From an uncultured Candidatus Saccharibacteria bacterium (GTDB taxonomy: Bacteria > Patescibacteriota > Minisyncoccia > Phycocordibacterales > PALSA-1337), in the NCBI GenBank assembly GCA_964470105.1, contig CAYXZI010000004.1:5271-69270 (forward strand): DNA of 64,000 nt, in the 5' to 3' direction. Position numbers and translations under genes: made by a program. Below are positions 1,955 through 63,172 of the stretch, in pieces (positions within the stretch are counted from its first letter, which is position 1; the number at the start of each line of letters is the position of its first letter). The notes beneath the pieces are model-generated. The model worked only from the letters and a program-made list of their open reading frames with translations, was not told where the DNA came from and did no database searches.

Positions 1955-2350
1955 ATGAAGCACACATTATTGTATCTTATTACGCTACTAGTCATCACTC
2001 TATCTGACTTCACATGGTTTAAGCTTTCCTCATCTTTTTATCAAAAAGAAATAGGATTTTTATTTGGATCTAAAATTAACTATTTACCAGTTGCACTTTT
2101 CTATCTAATATATGCATTTGGTATACTGTTTTTTATTATTAATCCTCAGATTAAAGCTGATTCATCGTACATCACTGTGTTTTTAATAGGTGCTTTTTTC
2201 GGGCTAATAGCATATGGAACCTATGATTTTACTAATAATGCAACAATAAATAATTGGCCTGTTATTGTAACAATTGTTGATATTCTATGGGGAATGATAG
2301 TGACTGGTTTCGCTAGTTTGTTTGTATATATTATAAGTAAATATATTTAA
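1955..2350 (+). CDS. Hypothetical polytopic membrane protein
   Basis: 131 aa with about four hydrophobic helices. Confidence 0.45.
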   Translation: MKHTLLYLITLLVITLSDFTWFKLSSSFYQKEIGFLFGSKINYLPVALFYLIYAFGILFFIINPQIKADSSYITVFLIGAFFGLIAYGTYDFTNNATINNWPVIVTIVDILWGMIVTGFASLFVYIISKYI

Positions 2351-2360
2351 TACCAATTAT

Positions 2361-3026
2361 ATGTATAAAATTAAAACAGAAGGATGCTATACTACACCTA
2401 TGATTATCATATATTCTATAATCGCTGTAATTGTTTTGTGGTCTATCTGGGGATTCTTTTCCTCAAGAGTAGAGAGTGCTGAGTATTCAGTTATTGCTTC
2501 AAAGAATGGTTACGAAATCAGACTATATCCAGAACATATTGTTGCTCAAACAACTGTAAAGGGATCATACAATGAGGCATTAAATGAAGGCTTTCGTATT
2601 ATCGCTGGATATATTTTTGGAAACAATGTTAAGAAGCAAGATATTGCAATGACAGCTCCAGTTGTAGAGGAGACTAGTAAATCTGAATCCATATCTATGA
2701 CTACTCCAGTATCATCAAATATCGACGGTGAATATCACACGATAACTTTTGGTATGCCACGATCATATACATTGGAAACATTGCCCACTCCTTCTGATCC
2801 ACGTGTAAAGATAGAGACCATACCAGAGAAGAAGGTCGCTGTTATCAGATTCTCATGGATACGTACCGAATCTCGTGTTCAATCTAAGAAATTGGAACTT
2901 ATTGATCTATTAAAGAAAGACGGTGTGGTTATCAAAGGTGAGCCACAATACGCTGGATATAATGCACCTTGGACTCCACCATGGATGACTAGAAATGAGG
3001 TTATGATTGAAATTAAAGGTAATTAA
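2361..3026 (+). CDS. SOUL/HBP heme-binding family protein
   Basis: N-terminal TM helix, then YEIRLY ... FRIIAGYIFGNN ... IAMTAPV, matching the SOUL family pattern. Confidence 0.5.
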   Translation: MYKIKTEGCYTTPMIIIYSIIAVIVLWSIWGFFSSRVESAEYSVIASKNGYEIRLYPEHIVAQTTVKGSYNEALNEGFRIIAGYIFGNNVKKQDIAMTAPVVEETSKSESISMTTPVSSNIDGEYHTITFGMPRSYTLETLPTPSDPRVKIETIPEKKVAVIRFSWIRTESRVQSKKLELIDLLKKDGVVIKGEPQYAGYNAPWTPPWMTRNEVMIEIKGN

Positions 3027-26528: not shown

Positions 26529-27929
26529 TTATTTCCCCTCCTTTATCTCCAATCCCAACTCTTTCAACTGCTTAGCAGTAACCTTCCCTGGTGCCCCCAT
26601 CATTGGATCTCTTCCCTCTCCAGTCTTAGCGAAAGCGATTACTTCTCGAATATTAGGTTCATTCTCAAGTATCATAATTAGTCTATCCAATCCCCATGCC
26701 ATTCCACCATGTGGAGGTGTTCCGGATCCAAGAGCATTAAGCATGTGTCCAAAGTTTCTCTCTATTCTTTCATCCTCATATCCCATAATTTTAAATACAG
26801 ATTTCAAGGCTTCAGGATTATGATTTCTAATACTTCCACCACCAATCTCATATCCATTTAGAACAAGATCGTACTGAGTTGTAAAAATATTCTCTATATT
26901 CTTCTGCTCCATTAGATCTTTCATTGACTCTGGAGTTGGTGCAGAAAATGGATTATGAGTAAATGTCCAACCCTTTGTTTCTTCATCCTTTTCAAACATT
27001 GGGAAATCTACCACCCAAAGAAAAGCTAATTCATTTGGATTGTTTTTATCCTTTCTTATATCTGGCTTATCACTCTTATATTTCTCCATTGCCTCCTTGT
27101 ATGTCATTACTGGAATTGGAGTTTGTTGTATTTCTTTGTTTGGATATATTGATTTAACAAGATCAAGTACGATCTTTTCGTTTACTTCCATCACATCCTT
27201 TTGTTCAACAAAGCTCATTTCCATATCTAGCTGAGTGAATTCTGGCTGACGATCACCACGTGTGTCTTCATCACGCATACAACGAGCAATCTGGAAATAT
27301 TTCTCGAATCCTGAAGCCATTAGTAATTGCTTGTACTGTTGTGGTGATTGAGGGAGAGAGTAGAAGTGACCTACATCTAGTCTTGAAGGAACGATAAAGT
27401 CACGTGAACCTTCTGGAGTTGTTGCTGATAGTAGTGGAGTTTCAATTTCATTAAATCCTTCCTTAGAAAAAGCATTTCTTATATGAAGAGTTAATTTGCT
27501 TCTATTTAAAATATTTTTTTGTAATCTAGGTCTTCTTAGATCCTGATATCGATATTTCAACCTTACTTCCTCATTAATATCCTTTCCATCTTCATGCAAA
27601 TCAAATGGTGGTGTTGAAGCACTATTCAATACCTCAATACCAAGAATCTCAAGCTCTATATCTCCATTTAACTTATCTTTCTGTACATTCTTCTCTGGAC
27701 GAGCATTTACTTTTCCATGCACTTTAACTACCCATTCAGAGCGTAGAGTAGAACCTACAGCATGAGCTTCCTTTGCATTAGGGAGAATCACACCTTGTAT
27801 CTTTCCCGTTACATCACGGAAATCAAAGAAGATTAGTTTACCTTGATCACGGCGTATATCAACCCAGCCTGATATACTAACTTCTTTTCCTAATTGTGAC
27901 TTTAAATCTTTTATATATGTTCTTTCCAT
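26529..27929 (-). CDS. aspS: Aspartyl-tRNA synthetase, GAD-less type
   Basis: WVDIRRDQGKLIFFDFRD anticodon OB fold, FTQLDMEMSF motif 2 region, and GGMAWGLDRLIMIL motif 3. The sequence goes from KSDKPDIRK directly to WVVDFPMFE, so there is no GAD insertion. Start moved to MERTYIK because the longer ORF would run through the T-box terminator. Confidence 0.9.
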   Translation of the reverse strand: MERTYIKDLKSQLGKEVSISGWVDIRRDQGKLIFFDFRDVTGKIQGVILPNAKEAHAVGSTLRSEWVVKVHGKVNARPEKNVQKDKLNGDIELEILGIEVLNSASTPPFDLHEDGKDINEEVRLKYRYQDLRRPRLQKNILNRSKLTLHIRNAFSKEGFNEIETPLLSATTPEGSRDFIVPSRLDVGHFYSLPQSPQQYKQLLMASGFEKYFQIARCMRDEDTRGDRQPEFTQLDMEMSFVEQKDVMEVNEKIVLDLVKSIYPNKEIQQTPIPVMTYKEAMEKYKSDKPDIRKDKNNPNELAFLWVVDFPMFEKDEETKGWTFTHNPFSAPTPESMKDLMEQKNIENIFTTQYDLVLNGYEIGGGSIRNHNPEALKSVFKIMGYEDERIERNFGHMLNALGSGTPPHGGMAWGLDRLIMILENEPNIREVIAFAKTGEGRDPMMGAPGKVTAKQLKELGLEIKEGK

Positions 27930-28135
27930 AAATTTGCTAGTTTTCGGAGAATGAAAAAACCCCTCCGAATTCATTAATAATAAATTCGCAGGGGCGATTT
28001 CATCGCGGTGCCACCCTGTTTTTAACTCATTATCTGCTAGCGAGCAGTGCGTGGGATTCTACTTACCTTGCGGCTTTCTTTCCCTATCTCACCGGTGTCA
28101 GCCGGGTCGTAGATGGGTAAAGTATGACATTAATA
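27930..28135 (-). promoter_or_regulatory. Asp T-box leader upstream of aspS
   Basis: In minus-strand sense it reads AAACAGGGUGGCACCGCGAUGAAAUCG, the conserved T-box sequence; UGGC implies a discriminator G as in tRNA-Asp. It is followed directly by terminator CCCCUGCGAAUU...AAUUCGGAGGGG UUUUUU. GAC triplets occur in the upstream stem region as specifier candidates. Confidence 0.7.
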
Positions 28136-28150
28136 GAAGAAAAAGCAATT

Positions 28151-28179
28151 GTTGACGACAAATAAGTTTCGTGATATAA
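28151..28179 (+). promoter_or_regulatory. Promoter: TTGACG, 17-nt spacer, TATAAA
   Basis: About 11 nt upstream of ATG 28191, giving a very short leader. Confidence 0.4.
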
Positions 28180-28190
28180 AGAAATCTGAT

Positions 28191-28652
28191 ATGAAGACCA
28201 CATACTCTAGAAACGGTCGTCCGCTACCGCGAACAATCAAGGTGTTCAACGAGGATGAGTTCAAGAGACTGGGCGTCGAAGAACTCATTCGTGCCTTGAA
28301 GGCCGATAAGTTCCTTCGCTCGATGGTACAACGGGTTCAGTCTCGGCTCTCTGCTACAAAGCGAGAATATGCCACCTGGATCTTTAAACCCCACTTCCTC
28401 CCTTTTCGTACCGTCGGTACGACTACATATTTGGGTGTGAGAGGAAATGTGTGCGACACAATTCTGACAGCACAACTTTGGATCTACAGACCATCAAAGA
28501 AGGGTGACCCATTCCTTGATGGTAGGGTGACATTTAGTTACCCCCACACCATCTTCCTGTCACATCTCAACGGTGGGTGGAATGTTTCTCTTGGCGATGA
28601 TTCCCCAATGTCTCTCGCTTCGTTGGTCGAGCACATAGAGCAGCTTCGCTAG
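28191..28652 (+). CDS. Hypothetical protein encoded by a GC-rich gene
   Basis: 153 aa at about 50% GC in a 33% GC background. The first 11 nt ATGAAGACCAC are shared with the gene at 38158. Own terminator at 28680-28710. Confidence 0.45.
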   Translation: MKTTYSRNGRPLPRTIKVFNEDEFKRLGVEELIRALKADKFLRSMVQRVQSRLSATKREYATWIFKPHFLPFRTVGTTTYLGVRGNVCDTILTAQLWIYRPSKKGDPFLDGRVTFSYPHTIFLSHLNGGWNVSLGDDSPMSLASLVEHIEQLR

Positions 28653-28679
28653 AAATAGCTGCTCAACCAAACAAAAACA

Positions 28680-28710
28680 GTCCCCGAAATACTCGGGGAC
28701 TTGTTCTTTT
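28680..28710 (+). terminator. Intrinsic terminator
   Basis: Stem GTCCCCGA / TCGGGGAC followed by TTGTTCTTTT. Confidence 0.6.
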
Positions 28711-28815
28711 ATATAACCCCAATCGCTTTCTTAACCTCCAGCATCTTTGCATTTGCAACCTCATTTGCCTTTCGTGATCCTTTTTCTAGTATTTTTCTTA
28801 CTGAATCTAAATCTT
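28711..28815. repeat. Non-coding, about 92%-identical copy of the trpS 3' end; direct repeat partner of 29273-29377
   Basis: Aligns base by base with the segment encoding the TrpS C-terminus (about 8 mismatches over about 105 nt). Similarity ends where the dCTP-deaminase-like gene terminates. Confidence 0.7.
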
Positions 28816-29265
28816 TTTTAATTTACCAAAAACTCCACAAACTATTTTGGTGCCAACATGTAATCTGACAGTCATAGATCCATTGTTTGATATTTCTAGG
28901 GCAAGTTGATTATCAGTGTTCGGTTCACAGAAAAAAGAGCTTTGAGTTACATTTAATCCCATCTGTGCAATAGTCGGTCTTGTACTTAATATACATGTAA
29001 ATTTATTATTTAAGCTTACTTTTTCCTTAGTATAAAAAATAGCAAATGAACCGGGTTTTAATTCAAATCCATCGTTTCCAATTGTATACTCTTCGAATTC
29101 AGGATCTTCTCGTGAATCTATAAATTCCTTAGCTTTAAGAATTCTGTACTTTGAGCCTAGAGTTAATGTATAACTTGCACCCTTAAGGTAACCTGCATCA
29201 AATGGTTCAATTATGATTTCCTTATTTTTTACTAACTGTTCTATATCCTTACCAGATAAAAACAT
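28807..29265 (-). CDS. dCTP deaminase/dUTPase-superfamily protein
   Basis: 152 aa. GKDIEQLVKNKEIIIEPF and GASYTLTLG resemble the dCTP deaminase family. Flanked by the trpS 3'-end repeats. Confidence 0.55.
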   Translation of the reverse strand: MFLSGKDIEQLVKNKEIIIEPFDAGYLKGASYTLTLGSKYRILKAKEFIDSREDPEFEEYTIGNDGFELKPGSFAIFYTKEKVSLNNKFTCILSTRPTIAQMGLNVTQSSFFCEPNTDNQLALEISNNGSMTVRLHVGTKIVCGVFGKLKKI

Positions 29266-29270
29266 AAAAT

Positions 29271-30221
29271 TTATATAACCCCAATCGCTTTCTTGACCTC
29301 CAGCATCTTTGCATTTGCTACCTCATTTACTTTTCGTGATCCTTTTTCTAATATTTTTCGTACTAAATCTAAATCCTTTGCTAGTTCTGTACGCTTATCA
29401 CGTAATGGTTTGATGAATGCATCTAAATCATCGATTAATGCTTCTTTTAGAATTTTATATTTTCCTTTATTCGCATCATAAAGTGTCTTCAACTCTGCTT
29501 CTGTTCGGAAAAGTTTGTGAATATTGTATACATTAGTTGGTACATCTCCACTTGAATCTGTGACGATACTCATCACCGCCTTTGTAATCTCCTCTCGTGT
29601 AGAGAAAAGCGGAATTGTGTTGTTATAGCTCTTAGACATTTTTTGTCCATCGATTCCCGGAATTATTGCAGAATCTTTAAGAATTACTTCTTCAGGAAGT
29701 TTGAAAGTCTCTCCAAAAGTATTGTTAAACTTTTGAGCTATATCACGTGCGTATTCGATATGCTGTTTCTGGTCCTGTCCTACTGGAACTAGATCTGTGT
29801 TGTAAAGTAGAATATCAGCCGCCATTAATACAGGATAGTTGAATGTTCCAACACTAATCTCCTTGTTCTTAGCTTCTGCATCTTTAAAGGCATGTGCACG
29901 CATCAAGAAAGGCATTGATGTAATAGAATCAAAGATCCAAGTTAGTTCTGTGTGAGCTGGAACATCACTTTGCTTAAAAATATTGGAAATATTTGGATCA
30001 ATACCAATAGCTAAATAGTCCAAAGCTAGGTCTAAAGTATGTTCCCGCATTGTCTTTGCATCTTGGATGCTGTTGAGGGCGTGATAGTCAGCAATCATAA
30101 AAAATTTGTGAGCGTCCTTGTGCTCATTTTGTAGATCTACCATTTGCTTCATAGCACCAAAATAGTTACCGATATGTGGTCGGCCTGTTGGTTTAACTCC
30201 TGAAAGTAATATTTTTGACAT
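29271..30221 (-). CDS. trpS: Tryptophanyl-tRNA synthetase
   Basis: KILLSGVKPTGRPHIGNYFGA (HIGH motif) and KMSKSYNNTI (KMSKS motif). Start taken at MSKILLSG. Confidence 0.9.
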   Translation of the reverse strand: MSKILLSGVKPTGRPHIGNYFGAMKQMVDLQNEHKDAHKFFMIADYHALNSIQDAKTMREHTLDLALDYLAIGIDPNISNIFKQSDVPAHTELTWIFDSITSMPFLMRAHAFKDAEAKNKEISVGTFNYPVLMAADILLYNTDLVPVGQDQKQHIEYARDIAQKFNNTFGETFKLPEEVILKDSAIIPGIDGQKMSKSYNNTIPLFSTREEITKAVMSIVTDSSGDVPTNVYNIHKLFRTEAELKTLYDANKGKYKILKEALIDDLDAFIKPLRDKRTELAKDLDLVRKILEKGSRKVNEVANAKMLEVKKAIGVI

Positions 30222-30305: not shown

Positions 30306-30551
30306 ATGAACAAAGCTCTTACTACAGTTATTGTGATCGTTATTGCCTCTGCATGGTTGACGATTCTTCTCCAGCAAAGCCGGCTAGCCAGGCAGGCAGC
30401 CGAGATTTCCGAATGGAAATCCACTGCTCAGATTGCAATCCACAGTCGCAACGTCTATTGGCGAAGAGACCCTTCGCCGCAGGACTTGAGGGATGCGCTT
30501 GATGCATCCAAGCCCATGAACCCAACCATGAGTGGGTACATGCGTAAGTAG
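30306..30551 (+). CDS. Small single-TM protein (81 aa), GC-rich
   Basis: ALTTVIVIVIASAWLTILL TM helix followed by a charged tail. Own promoter and terminator (30572-30606). Confidence 0.4.
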   Translation: MNKALTTVIVIVIASAWLTILLQQSRLARQAAEISEWKSTAQIAIHSRNVYWRRDPSPQDLRDALDASKPMNPTMSGYMRK

Positions 30552-30571
30552 GGTTCAAACAATTCACATCG

Positions 30572-30606
30572 GGCGGGTGCAAAACAAGCACCCGCTCTTT
30601 CTTTTA
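30572..30606 (+). terminator. Intrinsic terminator
   Basis: Stem GCGGGTGC / GCACCCGC followed by TCTTTCTTTTAC. The stem resembles the hairpin at 51604-51626. Confidence 0.55.
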
Positions 30607-36488: not shown

Positions 36489-36842
36489 ATGCTAGATAAC
36501 CAACTCATAATGGGATCAAAAATGATCAAAGAAACTGAAACTCAACGCCAGAAACGAGAGGAGAAGGAAGCCATGGGAAAGGAGAGGATACTCAGGCATG
36601 CCAAATCCCTTATTGATGGAATCGAGAGCGGAAAGATGCCCAGGGTAGTGGTTGCTGGGGCGATCCACCAAATACTTGCGGGTGCCGCACTGTATTGCCC
36701 TGATCAGATGATTCTTGTTCACGGGCACAACAAGAAGGAATCAGAGGTGCCAGACCCAGAACTGATCACTCGGACTGCGAAGTGGCTCTCAAAGGCAGAT
36801 GCGGAGATAGAGAGAGCAAGAGAAGAAGGCAATGGATCATAA
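36489..36842 (+). CDS. Hypothetical protein (GC-rich gene); the start codon is uncertain
   Basis: 117 aa ORF at about 50% GC with no recognised domain. Followed by the 46-nt terminator repeat. Confidence 0.4.
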   Translation: MLDNQLIMGSKMIKETETQRQKREEKEAMGKERILRHAKSLIDGIESGKMPRVVVAGAIHQILAGAALYCPDQMILVHGHNKKESEVPDPELITRTAKWLSKADAEIERAREEGNGS

Positions 36843-36844
36843 CC

Positions 36845-36886
36845 GAAAGCCGGCCTCCCCAGTGGACGCCGGCTTCGCTTTTTATA
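36845..36886 (+). terminator. Terminator, repeat copy 1: GAAAGCCGGCCTCCCCAGTGGACGCCGGCTTCGCTTTTT
   Basis: Stem AAGCCGGC / GCCGGCTT followed by a T-run. About 46 nt identical except 1 nt to the element at 38779-38827. Confidence 0.65.
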
Positions 36887-36891
36887 TTTAA

Positions 36892-37893
36892 CTAGACTAA
36901 TAGATTAGTTGTAAGTGCTACCATCAGTTCCTTATCCTTAGGATCACTTTCAGCAATCAACAGTGCTAAAGCTACTAGTGTATTATCATTTATTTTTCTT
37001 TCACCATTTGCTCGTATATCAATTCTATTAAGTCTCAAGAAGAAAACAAAACAGAATGAAGCTATACGCTTATTACCATCTGAGAATGGATGGTCCTTTA
37101 TGATGAAGTACAGTAGATGAGCTGCTTTTTCATCGAGACTTGAATATAGCTCCTTTCCATCAAAAGTTTGATATATGGTTTTAAGTATACCCCGGAAACT
37201 TCCATCACGTTCTATACCGAAGAGATCTGATGCTTCCTTTTTATCTATTAATACAGTCTTTAAGACTTCAATTGAACTATGAATGAATTCATAATCAAAT
37301 TTCTTTTTTTCAATATCCTTACTTTTCCTTAACTTTAGCTCACCTTCATCATATTCCTTAAGAAATTTCCATGAATTAGCATAGTCATGTATTACAGACA
37401 ACAAGCTATTACTCTCGCCTTGGCTTAACTCTCTTTCTCTAACAGTGCGCTGAATGAAGGAAATCTTTTCTTCTAGATCCTTAAGTATTCTATCTGGGAG
37501 ATTACTAACTCTTTCATTGTTAATAACAATACCTTTAATTAGATACTCTCGAAGTGTTGTAGTGGCCCACTGTCTGAATTTAATTGCCTTTGAAGAATTA
37601 GTACGATATCCGACTGCCAGGATGATGTCTAGTGAATATAAGGTAACTGGCTTATATGAATTAGTATTATGCATATTTTGCATATTGCTTTTTTCATCCA
37701 CCTCACCATCACTGAGTGTATTCTTTATGTGTCTAGACACAACCGACTGATCAATTTCGAACAATTCAGCAATCTGAGCCTGTGTTGCCCAAATTGTTTC
37801 CTTATCTGTGTCAGCTCTCAATTCTACTGTCCCATTAGCACTTGTATATATTACAAGCCTACCATCATCATTTTTAATGATATTTGTGTTCAT
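36892..37893 (-). CDS. RhuM-family N-terminal domain fused to a Fic/DOC domain
   Basis: N-terminal LVIYTSANGTVEL...TIWATQAQIAELF is RhuM-like. The C-terminal HPFSDGNKRIASF matches the Fic motif HPFx(D/E)GN(G/K)R. Confidence 0.7.
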   Translation of the reverse strand: MNTNIIKNDDGRLVIYTSANGTVELRADTDKETIWATQAQIAELFEIDQSVVSRHIKNTLSDGEVDEKSNMQNMHNTNSYKPVTLYSLDIILAVGYRTNSSKAIKFRQWATTTLREYLIKGIVINNERVSNLPDRILKDLEEKISFIQRTVRERELSQGESNSLLSVIHDYANSWKFLKEYDEGELKLRKSKDIEKKKFDYEFIHSSIEVLKTVLIDKKEASDLFGIERDGSFRGILKTIYQTFDGKELYSSLDEKAAHLLYFIIKDHPFSDGNKRIASFCFVFFLRLNRIDIRANGERKINDNTLVALALLIAESDPKDKELMVALTTNLLV

Positions 37894-38157: not shown

Positions 38158-38748
38158 ATGAAGACCACCCCTACTTTAGAGCGAGTTGTCGATGCAATAC
38201 AGGAGACAGTTATCAAGGAATTGCTCACGGTATGGAGAATCAACCGTGAGATTACGACCGAGAAACTCTCGGCAATGACCTATCGGCAATTGAGGTCCCA
38301 GCTCGGCCCCAAATCAATCCATCGTTTGTATCTCGAGTGTTGGAGTACAATTTCCCCCGACATGGCCTGGATGAAGGATCATGAAAGGAAGCGAGAAAAA
38401 AGATTGTCTCCGATCGAAGTGACTGGCTACTCTATCACATATCAGGAAGTCAGGTGGGCTGAAATTGAAGCAAGTGTCAAAAAGATACAAGTACTCGCCA
38501 CCCCATCAATCAAACTCCTTCTCAAGAAGTTTCGAAAAAAAGGAGAAACTCAGCAAGGTGAATGGGCGTGTGAAAGAGCAGATGATGTATTTCCTAGCAA
38601 ACTTCCTGAAGATCAGCGTCTGCACCCCCTATTTCTGATCAATCAGAGGCTGCAATTCGATGGAGTTCACTTTAGGTTTAAGTTCATGCCTTACAGAAGT
38701 GGACCTGCCAGTACTGATCTGGTCGAAATTGTCGCCAGGAACAGATAG
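38158..38748 (+). CDS. Hypothetical protein (GC-rich gene)
   Basis: 196 aa. Starts with ATGAAGACCAC, as does the gene at 28191. Upstream TTTAGAGAAAGC and CGGATGCT motifs. Followed by terminator repeat copy 2. Confidence 0.45.
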   Translation: MKTTPTLERVVDAIQETVIKELLTVWRINREITTEKLSAMTYRQLRSQLGPKSIHRLYLECWSTISPDMAWMKDHERKREKRLSPIEVTGYSITYQEVRWAEIEASVKKIQVLATPSIKLLLKKFRKKGETQQGEWACERADDVFPSKLPEDQRLHPLFLINQRLQFDGVHFRFKFMPYRSGPASTDLVEIVARNR

Positions 38749-38778
38749 TCCACATCTCTACGACTTACCTGGAACACG

Positions 38779-38817
38779 AAAGCCGGCCTCCCAAGTGGAC
38801 GCCGGCTTCGCTTTTTA
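38779..38817 (+). terminator. Terminator, repeat copy 2
   Basis: Same sequence as 36845-36886 except CCCCAG becomes CCCAAG. Convergent with the dnaK stop codon. Confidence 0.65.
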
Positions 38818-38841
38818 TATTCAATTTTACTTTCTTTTAAT

Positions 38842-42219: not shown

Positions 42220-42240
42220 ATAAAATAGTATACGTTAGAA

Positions 42241-42299
42241 TTTTAGATTTGCAAATATTTTAAGTTACATGGTATTGTCATATTGGTAACTGCAACCAT
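42241..42299 (+). repeat. 60-nt promoter/leader repeat, copy 1 (TTGCAA-18-TATTGT)
   Basis: Identical to 42783-42841 across about 59 nt. The palindromic TTGCAA at 42248-42253 also serves as the -35 of the divergent grpE promoter. Confidence 0.6.
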
Positions 42300-42344
42300 G
42301 AAATGCAGAAATTATAGGTGCTTAGCACCAGAAAGTATAGTTCC

Positions 42345-42710: not shown

Positions 42711-42782
42711 GGACGATATCATTTCTACATTGCAAAGCGGCAAGGTTTTCCCTTGTCGCTTTTTAATTAGCTCTTAAACCAT

Positions 42783-42841
42783 TTTAGATTTGCAAATATT
42801 TTAAGTTACATGGTATTGTCATATTGGTAACTGCAACCATG
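42783..42841 (+). repeat. 60-nt promoter/leader repeat, copy 2
   Basis: Perfect copy of 42241-42299. Here the ATG at the end of the repeat reads straight into the ORF. Confidence 0.6.
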
Positions 42842-43231
42842 GCACCTAAAACCGTGCCTCAAAGAGAAAGTGTTTGTATGGCAGAGATAACGATAAGGAA
42901 AAGTTTGGAATTCGATGATGAGATTTCTCAAAAGATTTGTGTGGATATAATTGACGCCCTTTCATACTTTGGGAATGAACGCCTTGTCATTGATCAGATT
43001 GATCTTTGGCCTAGGATTGTGGGAGATGAATGTGTCCTATCGGTCACCATTACCCACCGAGCTTCAGGGAGAGTAGAGCAATCTACTTTTGAACTCAACA
43101 ACAATTGGAGTCCACACTCGATCGCATTAGCAATCAAAACACACACAGGTATACCCCTTATGTCAGAGGTACCTGTTACCGAAAGGTTAGTATCGACACT
43201 TGGATCAATTCCAATTACACCGATTGGATGA
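42839..43231 (+). CDS. Hypothetical protein (GC-rich); paralog of the 42345 gene
   Basis: MAPK...MAEITIRKSL... The N-terminal region weakly matches the P1 N-terminus (ITI ... DAV/DAL ... FG). Terminator at 43249-43278. Confidence 0.45.
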   Translation: MAPKTVPQRESVCMAEITIRKSLEFDDEISQKICVDIIDALSYFGNERLVIDQIDLWPRIVGDECVLSVTITHRASGRVEQSTFELNNNWSPHSIALAIKTHTGIPLMSEVPVTERLVSTLGSIPITPIG

Positions 43232-60298: not shown

Positions 60299-63172
60299 TT
60301 ATACAACTATATTTACGAGTTTGTTTTTAACAAAAATCACTTTTTTCACCTCCTTTCCATCTATCCATTTCTGTATTTCCTCCATATTTAGAGCCGTATT
60401 CTTCAATTCATCATCCGGTGTATCCCTTTTTACTTTTACCTCCCCTCTCGTCTTACCATTAATCTGAATGAATACTGTCACATTGCTTTCTACCAACCTG
60501 TTTGGATCAAACTTTGGCCATTCTGATTCATGTACTGATCCTTTGTTCTTCATCCTCTCCCATATTTCTTCTGTAAAATGTGGTGCAAACGGAGCAACTA
60601 GTTGAATGATTATCTGATAATATTCTTTAGAAATGCTTTTTTCTTTTTCAAATTCATTCAATAGAATCATTATGGAACTAACAGCGGTATTGAATCTCAT
60701 TTCCTCTATATCCTCACTTACCTTCTTTATCGTCTTATGAACTGAAGTCTCAATACTTTCTCCACCACCCTCCCCAATCTTTTCTTGTAACTTCCATATT
60801 CTTTCAATGAATCTTCTTGAACCTGCAATGGTGTTGGTATCCCATGCTATCGCTTGATCAAATGGACCCATAAACATTTCATGTATTCTAAGTGTATCTG
60901 CTCCAACTGTTTTCACTATATCATCTGGATTAACTACATTTCCTACTGACTTAGACATCTTTGCTCCACCTTCAGCTAGAATTAATCCATGTGATGTTCT
61001 CTTCTTATATGGTTCCTTTGTTGGTACAAGACCCAGGTCATAGAGGAATTTATGCCAGAATCGAGAATATAGGAGGTGTAGGGTGGTATGTTCCATACCT
61101 CCGTTATACCAATCAACTGGAGTCCAGTATTTGAGATTCTTTTGACTAGCAAACTCCTTCTTATTATGTGCATCAACGTAACGTAGATAGTACCAACTAG
61201 ATCCAGCCCAGTTAGGCATAGTGTCGGTTTCTCGCTTTGCTTTACCTTTACAATTTGGACATTTAGTATTCACCCATTTATCTAGAGAAGAAAGTGGTGA
61301 TTCACCTGTTTCAGTTGGTTTATAGTTTTTAACTTTTGGGAGCTTGAGTGGTAATTCTTTTTCAGGCACAGGAACTATCCCACATTTTGGACAATGTACA
61401 ACAGGTATTGGTTCTCCCCAATATCTCTGACGAGAGAATATCCAGTCGCGGAGTTTAAACTTCGTTACCCATTTACCTCCAACAAATTCAGTAATTTCTT
61501 TTTTAACAGATTCAGAGTCTTTACCTGTAAAATTACCGGAGTCTAACAACATACCTTCTCCTGTATATATGTATTCAGGATTAAAGATTATATTCTCAAG
61601 GAATTTTCCTTCAGAGACAGTTAGAAAATCAAATAGTTCCTTCTTGCTTTTCCAAGTTATATCATGCAATGCTCGCTCTTTTTCACTAACCACAGATCTG
61701 TCTTCATTTTCTAAATCAAAAAATACATAGTGGAAATGAGCCCATCGATTCACTTCTTTAATTCGATGAAAGAAAAAAGTATTAATATTAACTGGTGAAG
61801 TTCTAATATATTTAAGATTTTTATAGCCAGTCTCCTCTTCGACTTCTCTTCTAGCTGCCACAACTGGATCCTCACCTTCTTCAATTCCTCCTGTTATTAA
61901 ACCGTTCATCTTTGCAATTTTCCAACTTATACAGAGATACTTATCATCTTTAGGATTACGAACAACTACACAAACCGCTTCTCTTTTAATATACGGCAAA
62001 TCTTTTTTTGGAATTGAATCTGTGGCATCAATAAACTTAGGCTCTAGAACATACTTAACATTTAACTTATATTTCTTCGCAAAGTACCAATCTCTCTCAT
62101 CATGAGCAGGTACGGCCATTACTGCACCAGTTCCATAGTCAGATAGGACATAATCAGCTACCCATACTGGTATCTTTTCTTTGGTTGCAGGGTTTATAGC
62201 CCAGACTCCTTTTACTTCAACTCCAGTCTTTGTATTTTTTGCATCAGTTCTTTCTATTGTAGACTTATCCTTTGCTTGTTTTACATATTTCTTTACTTCA
62301 TCAGCATTATTCAATACTCCTTTATGATTATCGTCTATAGCTAGAGTCACCCAAGGATGCTCTGGAGAAAGTACTATATATGTGACTCCGTATATGGTAT
62401 CAGGTCGTGTAGTGAATGCCGGAATCAATCCTGGTTTCTGACCACCCTCGAACTGAATTTCAAAACTGATTTCTGCCCCCTCACTCTTCCCAATCCAATT
62501 TCTCTGTTGAATCTTTATTTTCTCCAAGAATTCAGTCTCATCCAAATCCTTATCAAGTCTCTCTGCATATTTTGTTATAGCCAACATCCACTGTTCCTTT
62601 TCTCGCTGTTCAACTTTTGTACCACATCTATCACAGCATCCATCTACAACTTCTTCATTAGCTAGACCTATCAAGTCCTTAGGACACCAGTTTATGGTCA
62701 TCTTCTTCTTGTATGCCAATCCTTTCTTTAGGAATTGTAGGAATATCCATTGTGTCCATTTATAGTATTTAGGATCTGTAGTATCTATTTCTCTGTCCCA
62801 GTCAAAAGAGAAACCGAGCATCTTCAATTGCTTTCTAAAGTTATCAGTATTCTGTTTAGTAACTATAGCTGGTTGTATACCCGTCTTGATAGCATAGTTC
62901 TCTGTAGGTAGACCAAATGCATCCCAACCTATTGGATACAGTACATTGTATCCCTCTCTTCTTCTCTTACGAGAAATGATGTCCATAGCAGTATTACTTC
63001 TAATGTGGCCTACATGCATACCAGCTCCAGATGGATATGGGAATTCTATGAGAGCATAGAACTTTTTCTTATTTAAATCCTCCTTCACCTTATTAGGCTT
63101 TTTCTTCTCCCAAACCTTCTGCCACTTCTTTTCTATTTTAATATGATCATACTGTTCCATAAAATGTATCAT
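60299..63172 (-). CDS. leuS: Leucyl-tRNA synthetase carrying an embedded Nudix hydrolase domain
   Basis: HIGH (HVGHIRSN) and KMSKS motifs, a TRPDT editing-domain motif, and the zinc knuckle CPKCG. About 100 aa longer than typical LeuRS, due to a roughly 135-aa insertion at residues 395-530. Confidence 0.9.
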   Translation of the reverse strand: MIHFMEQYDHIKIEKKWQKVWEKKKPNKVKEDLNKKKFYALIEFPYPSGAGMHVGHIRSNTAMDIISRKRRREGYNVLYPIGWDAFGLPTENYAIKTGIQPAIVTKQNTDNFRKQLKMLGFSFDWDREIDTTDPKYYKWTQWIFLQFLKKGLAYKKKMTINWCPKDLIGLANEEVVDGCCDRCGTKVEQREKEQWMLAITKYAERLDKDLDETEFLEKIKIQQRNWIGKSEGAEISFEIQFEGGQKPGLIPAFTTRPDTIYGVTYIVLSPEHPWVTLAIDDNHKGVLNNADEVKKYVKQAKDKSTIERTDAKNTKTGVEVKGVWAINPATKEKIPVWVADYVLSDYGTGAVMAVPAHDERDWYFAKKYKLNVKYVLEPKFIDATDSIPKKDLPYIKREAVCVVVRNPKDDKYLCISWKIAKMNGLITGGIEEGEDPVVAARREVEEETGYKNLKYIRTSPVNINTFFFHRIKEVNRWAHFHYVFFDLENEDRSVVSEKERALHDITWKSKKELFDFLTVSEGKFLENIIFNPEYIYTGEGMLLDSGNFTGKDSESVKKEITEFVGGKWVTKFKLRDWIFSRQRYWGEPIPVVHCPKCGIVPVPEKELPLKLPKVKNYKPTETGESPLSSLDKWVNTKCPNCKGKAKRETDTMPNWAGSSWYYLRYVDAHNKKEFASQKNLKYWTPVDWYNGGMEHTTLHLLYSRFWHKFLYDLGLVPTKEPYKKRTSHGLILAEGGAKMSKSVGNVVNPDDIVKTVGADTLRIHEMFMGPFDQAIAWDTNTIAGSRRFIERIWKLQEKIGEGGGESIETSVHKTIKKVSEDIEEMRFNTAVSSIMILLNEFEKEKSISKEYYQIIIQLVAPFAPHFTEEIWERMKNKGSVHESEWPKFDPNRLVESNVTVFIQINGKTRGEVKVKRDTPDDELKNTALNMEEIQKWIDGKEVKKVIFVKNKLVNIVV
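61583..61990 (-). other. Nudix hydrolase domain inserted in LeuRS between the CP1 editing domain and the catalytic-core return
   Basis: Canonical Nudix box GGIEEGEDPVVAARREVEEETGY (G-x5-E-x7-REUxEExGU), encoded at 61823-61891. The position corresponds to the short E. coli linker after KYGLNIKPV. Confidence 0.75.

Follow-up and report, generated by a model that had tools for sequence, protein, structure and literature searches.

Prophages e14 and 21 integrate in the 3' end of icd, regenerate the gene and leave attL/attR-like repeats, and islands target tRNA and tmRNA genes. Homology-facilitated illegitimate recombination (HFIR) has been described in transformable bacteria (de Vries & Wackernagel 2002, Prudhomme et al. 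2002 and Meier & Wackernagel 2003, as cited in PMC5361080; see also PMC3240628), and the same recombination logic has been invoked to explain displaced 3' fragments and orphan modules at type VI secretion system (T6SS)/Rhs loci (PMC5361080; PMC3240628). In the 64-kb stretch of DNA analysed here (the window), which is part of contig CAYXZI010000004.1 of an uncultured bacterium, the 3' end of trpS, encoding tryptophan-tRNA ligase, occurs twice. The working end of the gene (R1) and a second copy (R2) enclose a dCTP deaminase-like gene (dcd), and R2 is followed by a terminator, a GC-rich orphan open reading frame (ORF) on the opposite strand, a T-box-like leader and aspS. A first inspection of the DNA (the original prediction) interpreted this arrangement as the footprint either of site-specific integration or of gene capture mediated by homologous recombination. 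The duplicated trpS end is probably the scar of an illegitimate recombination event that stacked two alternative modules of a variable slot, not the footprint of a mobile element. The mechanism is ordinary and of an already known kind; more interesting than the repeat is the markedly mosaic structure of the trpS-aspS locus.

The duplicated end of trpS

On the minus strand a gene for an RND transporter (34014-30604) is followed by trpS, dcd and aspS (coordinates in Table 1). With a repeat finder and MAFFT, R1 and R2 were recognised as a gap-free direct repeat of 110 nt with eight mismatches (93% identity) and a spacing of 562 nt. The originally described repeat of the trpS 3' end, of 105 nt and about 92% identity, is therefore real and slightly longer than first reported. 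It is the longest of only four families of direct repeats of at least 40 nt in the window and hence lies far beyond chance. As predicted, exactly one ORF is located between the copies, and its assignment to the dCTP deaminase family was supported by PF22769 (2.9e-26, 92.8 bits, cut-off 27).

The trpS frame of R2 stays open to the same TAA as that of R1, and dcd enters R2 in a different frame, such that its last three sense codons and the TAG (28807-28818) lie at or within the R2 boundary. The earlier description of R2 as non-coding does not apply to this end; R2 contains no start codon. Nor does the repeat similarity end at the dcd stop codon, as had been stated; rather, the repeat begins about 8 nt upstream of it. 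The dcd ORF ends with GGT AAA TTA AAA AAG ATT TAG, and similarity to trpS starts in the alignment at approximately AA(A/G)GATTTAG, from which it follows that the stop codon and the last one or two codons of dcd are derived from R2. At the junction dcd and trpS have only about 2-4 nt in common, at most AA(A/G)G, when the ancestral dcd end is reconstructed from homologues, and the upstream flanks are unrelated. The junction is located exactly where the homologue alignment places the native dcd stop. It has the appearance of an illegitimate, i.e., non-homologous, join with very short microhomology.

The genome was assembled from a metagenome of an uncultured organism, and strain mixtures are common in such material; the repeat could have been created by a chimera of two co-occurring strains or by a duplicated read path. 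A second assembler arrived at the identical sequence: the Logan contig SRR10036059_157392 (L001, 1702 nt) exactly matches 27726-29427 of the window and covers both copies and both junctions, with the reservation that it may stem from the same reads. The longest stretch free of mismatches between R1 and R2 measures 25 bases, and eight sites differ, which excludes a collapsed or duplicated path, and the junction overlap of about 2-4 nt is too short for a de Bruijn graph chimera. Because of this short overlap, k-mers spanning the junction must exist in the reads. The exact Logan contig and the short identical runs place the duplication in the reads and not in the assembler, so that an assembly artefact, which the original prediction had named as a possible refutation, is extremely unlikely.

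Origin of the second copy

The trpS gene of the window is 96% identical in amino acids and 90% in nucleotides to that of the relative L091. Over 108 nt R1 and R2 differ at eight positions, and the other two pairs formed with L091 differ at nine each; the three sequences are mutually equidistant. At the eight sites that vary, R2 reads AAA, TCA, AGA, CTA, AAG, GCA, GTT and GTT. Six of the eight differences between R1 and R2 are synonymous in the trpS frame, as opposed to one in each of the other frames, a bias with p=0.008 in a substitution simulation matched for the transition/transversion ratio. With L091 and L089 used for polarisation, every derived change assigned to R2 is synonymous (4/4, about 0.0065). 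R2 encodes the ancestral consensus peptide, and its reading frame and stop are intact. It is R1 that bears two derived replacements, S>L and A>V, relative to R2, L091, L089, L002 and L092. The differences between the copies display the pattern of purifying selection on two alleles. The equidistance, the synonymous bias and the ancestral peptide together indicate that R2 is a remnant, only recently cut off, of a different trpS allele that was functional; as judged from these comparisons, it does not appear to be a decaying local copy.

Alternatively, replication slippage, template switching or a tandem duplication of R-dcd might have produced a second copy of 110 nt of trpS inside a single genome, with later divergence of the copy or replacement of trpS. 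The repeats are direct, close and gap-free, as such a duplication would predict, and trpS allele replacement occurs in the clade and could have created the allelic differences afterwards. Unless trpS was later replaced, the four synonymous changes of four, the ancestral peptide, the open frame and the preserved stop of R2 are unexpected for neutral decay.

Synonymous changes would also result if R2 were expressed. The junction creates the heptamer A_AAA_AAG in the dcd frame, in the sequence context GGTAAATTAAAAAAGATTTAG. The heptamer (within 28810-28822, minus strand) is in phase with dcd, and a shift to -1 enters the trpS frame of R2, which is intact and leads to the native TAA. A -1 frameshift would fuse Dcd to the 34-residue C-terminal helix of TrpS, and selection would then keep R2 intact, in agreement with the exclusively synonymous changes of the R2 branch. 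Such an event is extremely unlikely. The heptamer is a by-product of the lysine-rich dcd end in an AT-rich genome and is probably coincidental, there is no downstream stimulatory structure (folding z about 0), the dcd homologues end at 150-153 amino acids with no relative carrying such a fusion, and the allelic origin explains the synonymous bias more simply. R2 is probably a non-functional pseudogene fragment and the repeat itself without function. For annotation, it is advisable to label R2 as a pseudogene fragment of trpS and not to describe dcd as the cargo of an island.

The trpS-aspS interval is a variable slot

Relatives were collected by scanning the GTDB species genomes with TrpS, which yielded Paceibacteria/Parcubacteria. 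The parents of the duplicated arrangement were sought through homologues of dcd and of the orphan ORF and by a metagenome scan with a 24-mer from the trpS end. In many relatives aspS directly adjoins trpS, and in the empty form of the locus it follows after 8-21 nt (L002, L010, L014, L015, L022, L027, L028). In others the interval comprises 0.2-4.5 kb and contains unrelated genes, among them ClpP-like ORFs and ABC-transporter-like genes. Since its contents range from nothing to several unrelated genes, the trpS-aspS interval is a variable slot. The empty sites expected by the original prediction exist. The T-box-like leader is absent where trpS abuts aspS; it occurs only in a subset (the window, L082, L085, L088, L089, L091, L023).

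Two arrangements are relevant to the window. In the A-type (L082-L087) the order is RND-trpS-dcd-aspS-scpA-scpB-ftsW-murG, with 6-11 nt between trpS and dcd and a conserved leader of about 210 nt before aspS. These loci possess neither the trpS repeat nor the GC-rich ORF, and their Dcd proteins are 70-74% identical to that of the window, the closest homologues having 74% and 70%. In L092/L093, likewise of the A-type, dcd (59%) follows trpS after 4 nt and precedes aspS by 33 nt, again free of a repeat. In the B-type (L088, L089, L091) the order is trpS, terminator, reverse ORF, T-box, aspS, and dcd is missing. L091, which was found with the 24-mer, has the same terminator immediately after trpS, then a ClpP-like reverse ORF (1977-2501, minus strand; PF00574, 5.2e-14), the T-box leader and aspS. 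The ClpP-like ORF lies within the same conserved terminator/promoter frame as the orphan ORF of the window. A reverse ORF in the trpS-aspS slot of L004 (6989-7519, minus strand) is likewise ClpP-like by sequence resemblance.

How the contents are exchanged is seen most clearly in L085, which contains dcd, and L088, which contains an orphan ORF. Over the 5.45 kb that end at the trpS stop the two loci agree at 94%, and in the initial 154 nt of the leader at 100%; all that distinguishes them is dcd versus terminator plus ORF, with no duplication. Dcd and terminator plus ORF are therefore allelic occupants of one slot. In the reverse-ORF cassettes the terminator and the promoter frame are conserved though the inner ORF differs, as revealed by boundary alignment. 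The synthetase genes are exchanged as well. Between L088 and L089 the ORF module is 97% identical and TrpS only about 35%, with the break at the trpS stop codon. TrpS exists in this clade as a 'type I' (314-316 amino acids) and a 'type II' (334-335 amino acids) that are 35-38% identical, and the flanks are 92-97% identical (L088 versus L089). The AspS of L082 is 39% identical behind a leader and 5' end that are 89% identical, which locates a breakpoint inside aspS. Compared with the window, L092 is the closest relative for both the RND protein (96%) and AspS (97%), but its TrpS is only 73% and its Dcd 59% identical. The mosaic identities and the clean swaps suggest frequent homologous exchange via conserved flanks, not the action of a dedicated recombinase.

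From 28768 down to 26530 the window is collinear with L089, from within the trpS 3' end through terminator, ORF and T-box to aspS, and 28817-28693 is 91% identical to the trpS end plus terminator of L091. By this collinearity R2 belongs with the B-type block. In these alignments the unit contiguous with the extra trpS fragment is accordingly the terminator and the GC-rich ORF, not dcd. The suggestion that the GC-rich gene entered in the same acquired segment is borne out insofar as it is contiguous with R2 and belongs to the same event, but dcd is not demonstrably cargo. The contiguity of R2 with a B-type terminator, exactly as in the intact loci of L089 and L091, also speaks against the copying of trpS within one genome, which requires a parent with both dcd and terminator/orphan ORF, of which none was seen among the relatives, and additional steps. 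We regard a local duplication as unlikely.

Site-specific integration would regard dcd and the trpS-end copy as an integrase-less, cis-mobilisable element inserted by a recombinase encoded elsewhere. The direct repeats bound exactly one gene, the trpS 3' end is regenerated and trpS intact, and in comparison with the B-type loci of L089 and L091 the window contains a precise insertion of 562 nt, i.e., dcd and one repeat. Synonymous-biased differences would also be expected if an element carried a mimic of the gene end. Several observations contradict this explanation. No integrase, recombinase or transposase Pfam match was obtained among the about 45 large ORFs of the window. The repeat contains neither an inverted repeat nor an att/attC-like hairpin, as determined with the repeat finder and by folding (z -0.08 and +0.23). 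The GC content of dcd (about 32% in the GC profile) matches that of the host, and the swap between L085 and L088 is clean, with no att duplication. Moreover, three other lineages (L082-L087, L092/L093) have a repeat-free dcd at this site, beginning 4-11 nt downstream of the trpS stop, the very situation that according to the original prediction would contradict it. Viral contigs carry only distant relatives of dcd (26-33% identical) and no relative of the orphan ORF, and hence do not support a phage origin; in PHROGs, dcd again matched only the dCTP-deaminase-like family. Site-specific integration of dcd is unlikely. The other proposal, gene capture through homologous recombination, comes close to the evidence, as extra DNA did enter the trpS-aspS interval.

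In an extension of the same idea, the interval would be a dedicated cassette-exchange site at which single-gene modules travel as small circles that use the trpS 3' end as recombination site. R1-dcd-R2 would then be an integrated, excisable cassette of 562 bp, and the modules would comprise dcd, the orphan ORFs, the ClpP-like genes and even whole trpS/aspS alleles. We consider this highly doubtful. In a bolder variant, R2 would have been kept because the -1 frameshift at A_AAA_AAG adds the C-terminal helix of TrpS to Dcd.

Probable stacking of two modules by illegitimate recombination

According to the explanation we favor, an A-type and a B-type locus contributed to the arrangement. Parent A' would have had the order trpS-dcd-T-box-aspS and parent B' the order trpS-terminator-reverse GC-rich ORF-T-box-aspS, with trpS 3' ends about 93% identical. 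A single illegitimate join would have connected the end of dcd in A' to about codon 281 of trpS in B', and homologous recombination of the ordinary kind, acting in the conserved flanks, presumably resolved the exchange at its other end. Events of this class are HFIR, plausibly following DNA uptake. The product would begin with trpS(R1)-dcd and continue with R2, the 35 terminal codons of trpS from the other allele, before terminator, orphan ORF, T-box and aspS. Incidentally R2 would provide dcd with its last one or two codons and the stop, and would place the old trpS terminator behind the trpS-dcd transcript. The position of the junction, which spares dcd, can be understood as survivorship, since only joins between the dcd stop and the leader keep dcd and the regulation of aspS intact. 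The 110-nt repeats could recombine with each other, which would delete dcd as a 562-bp circle and restore a B-type locus.

Both parental architectures occur among the relatives; that they were joined in one step, which of them was the recipient, and transformation as the route are what we infer from them. Several points weigh against this explanation. The actual parents A' and B' were not found in the homologue and 24-mer searches, which yielded only the close B-type relative L091, and beyond the genome of the window itself nothing exceeded 74% identity for dcd or 64% for the ORF. A' would be a genome that combines a type-I trpS of the R1 allele with a near-identical dcd, and B' one that combines the R2 allele with a near-identical orphan ORF. 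The junction offers very little microhomology, and the original end of dcd was deduced, not observed. The synonymous bias reveals the allelic origin of the differences, not the way in which the duplication arose, and a local duplication followed by replacement of trpS with another allele would yield the same synonymous pattern. Natural transformation of the host organism is an assumption; in this respect the window shows only RecR, RmuC and DnaB.

If interpreted in this way, the repeat is a useful dated footprint indicating that even essential genes in an operon-like run (trpS-aspS) are frequently exchanged in uncultured bacteria with reduced genomes. Three kinds of exchange are visible at the locus: swaps of accessory single-gene modules with borders sharp to the base pair, mutual replacement of synthetase alleles that are 35-39% identical in genomes that are nearly identical otherwise, and, occasionally, probable illegitimate stacking. 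This bears on how Patescibacteria acquire genes in the absence of obvious mobile elements.

The dcd-like protein and other features of the locus

Table 1. Features of the trpS-aspS region, with positions in the window
Feature	Position	Strand	Evidence and remarks
Second GC-rich orphan ORF, 81 aa, in the RND-trpS spacer	30306..30551	+	One predicted transmembrane helix; strong predicted terminator at 30571-30597
trpS, tryptophan-tRNA ligase, 316 aa, 'type I' allele	29271..30221	-	PF00579 3.4e-63; TIGR00233 281 bits, above cut-off
R1, working 3' end of trpS	29270..29379	-	Last 35 codons + TAA + 1 nt; repeat finder, MAFFT, frame analysis
dcd-like gene, 152 aa	28807..29265	-	PF22769 DCD; starts 5 nt after the trpS stop
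Junction of dcd 3' end with trpS codon about 281	28810..28822	-	Alignment of the dcd ends of L082, L085 and L092 and of trpS of R1 and L091
R2, putative orphan fragment of a second trpS allele	28708..28817	-	Codons about 282-316 + TAA; no start codon; frame not joined to dcd
Predicted bidirectional intrinsic terminator directly after R2	28679..28701	both	Two-strand terminator scan; fold -22.4 kcal/mol, z=-4.1
GC-rich orphan ORF, 153 aa, B-type cassette	28191..28652	+	GC profile; convergent with trpS-dcd
Promoter-like region and 5' untranslated region of the orphan ORF	28132..28190	+	TTGACG, 17 nt, TATAAA by eye; kept in L088, L089, L091
aspS leader, reduced T-box-like riboswitch	27930..28131	-	GGGTGGCACCGCG box, terminator hairpin + U run; right-hand conserved frame of the slot
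aspS, 466 aa	26529..27929	-	PF00152 + PF01336

The Dcd-like protein belongs to a small family of 10 clusters with members of 150-153 amino acids, by which measure the copy of the window is full length. It scores 85.7 bits with the equivalog TIGR02274, below the cut-off of 92.8, and its best relative in the PDB is 4xjc (4e-14). The C-terminus reads FGKLKKI*, compared with FSRLAN*/FSKLQK* in relatives. Catalysis by dCTP deaminase involves Ser111, Arg115 and Glu138 (E. coli numbering) and a C-terminal lid. The catalytic Glu is kept in the Dcd-like protein (LALEISN). The canonical motif R-S-S-x-x-R is replaced by R-P-T-I-A-Q, and RPT(I/M)AQ is present in 8/8 members of the family (the window and the homologues P0002-P0008). 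The protein stops about 25-40 residues short of canonical Dcd and lacks the C-terminal lid. As judged from these residues, the subfamily may not be composed of conventional dCTP deaminases, and its activity is uncertain. PADLOC gave no match for dcd, for either of the two orphan ORFs or for the 217-aa ORF of L085.

The terminator hairpin adjacent to R2 also follows the trpS stop in L088, L089 and L091. The 153-aa orphan ORF behind it has a GC content of about 49%, compared with about 35% for the genome, and it matches nothing in Pfam, NCBIfam, PADLOC or PHROG. Among 5.8 billion proteins only two homologue clusters besides its own were found. The gene for P0013 (61% identical) occupies the space from trpS to the T-box leader in L088 and L089, where it is convergent with trpS and comes straight after the same terminator. 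P0012 (64%, L090) lies on a contig of 689 nt, on which no neighbouring genes can be read. AlphaFold2 modelling of the ORF and its two homologues yielded an unusable model (mean predicted local distance difference test score 38, predicted template modelling score 0.29). An exact-protein look-up of the 316-aa TrpS and the 153-aa ORF returned no record, probably owing to differing start-codon calls. The promoter-like region upstream of the ORF was not listed by the promoter scan.

The T-box region before aspS noted in the original prediction was recovered as a T-box-like leader. RF00230 matched 27987-28119 with 35.3 bits (E=2.3e-6), below the gathering score of 93; at the gathering threshold Rfam reported nothing at the locus, and the match came from a permissive scan only. 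Most of stem I is absent. The leader possesses the GGGUGGCACCGCG box, the terminator hairpin with its U run, a possible GAC specifier and a UGGC bulge, and it is 89-100% conserved in L082, L085, L088, L089 and L091.

On the other side of trpS, the RND-trpS spacer measures 21-55 nt in L082 and L092, which lack the 81-aa ORF, and contains an unrelated 217-aa orphan ORF in L085 and L088. From these comparisons it appears to be a second, separate variable slot. The GC-rich orphan ORFs in the window proved not to be paralogous to each other, so the possibility of a single mobile family of GC-rich genes was dropped.

Orphan ORFs occur elsewhere in the window. Those at 36489-36842 and 38158-38748 (plus strand) break up the series formed by dnaJ, a RhuM/Fic gene (36892-37893) and dnaK, and each is followed by a GC-rich, terminator-like hairpin of 55 nt (36844-36898 and 38777-38831, 91% identical); the pattern of a reverse orphan ORF with a hairpin is the same as that beside trpS. 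A direct repeat of 61 nt (42240-42300 and 42781-42841, 100% identical), comprising a shared promoter/5' untranslated region including the ATG, precedes two tandem, unrelated and GC-richer orphan ORFs (plus strand, about 42299/42345-42710 and 42839-43231), which are situated between a grpE-like gene and rpsI/rplM, all named from their sequence alone. In the leucyl-tRNA synthetase (60299-63172, minus strand, 957 amino acids) the editing domain is followed by an inserted NUDIX domain (PF00293, residues 397-518, 1.5e-13).

Comparison with known systems

The unit bounded by R1 and R2 shares with integron cassettes its size of about 0.5 kb, its single promoter-less ORF and its location in a strain-variable slot. 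It differs from them in that the window encodes no IntI and the repeat consists of trpS coding sequence, not of an imperfect palindrome of the attC type. With prophages e14 and 21 the locus has in common that a direct repeat of a gene end bounds extra DNA, that the gene remains intact and that the copies differ mainly at synonymous sites. In contrast to the prophages, the window contains no integrase, no cargo the size of an element and no compositional signature, and the presumed cargo gene, dcd, is found at the same place in relatives free of the repeat.

The locus is closer to the products of HFIR, an exchange anchored at one end in conserved homologous DNA and joined at the other through a few bases of microhomology. 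In both cases foreign or alternative DNA is gained beside an anchor gene, of whose region a partial copy may persist. The difference is that HFIR at trpS was deduced by comparative genomics alone, in uncultured Paceibacteria whose donor, recipient and uptake were not observed.

The displaced C-termini and arrays of orphan modules at rhs, cdiA and T6SS effector-immunity loci (PMC5361080) differ from trpS-aspS in that the anchor is a polymorphic toxin gene, in contrast to the housekeeping gene of an aminoacyl-tRNA synthetase. The modules behind trpS show no toxin/immunity relationship, and instead of an array there is one displaced fragment. The order of the components is nevertheless alike, namely the main gene, the new module, the retained 3' fragment and the old module, and so are the events that would produce it: clean swaps between strains by homologous recombination and, more rarely, an illegitimate event that stacks the modules one behind the other.

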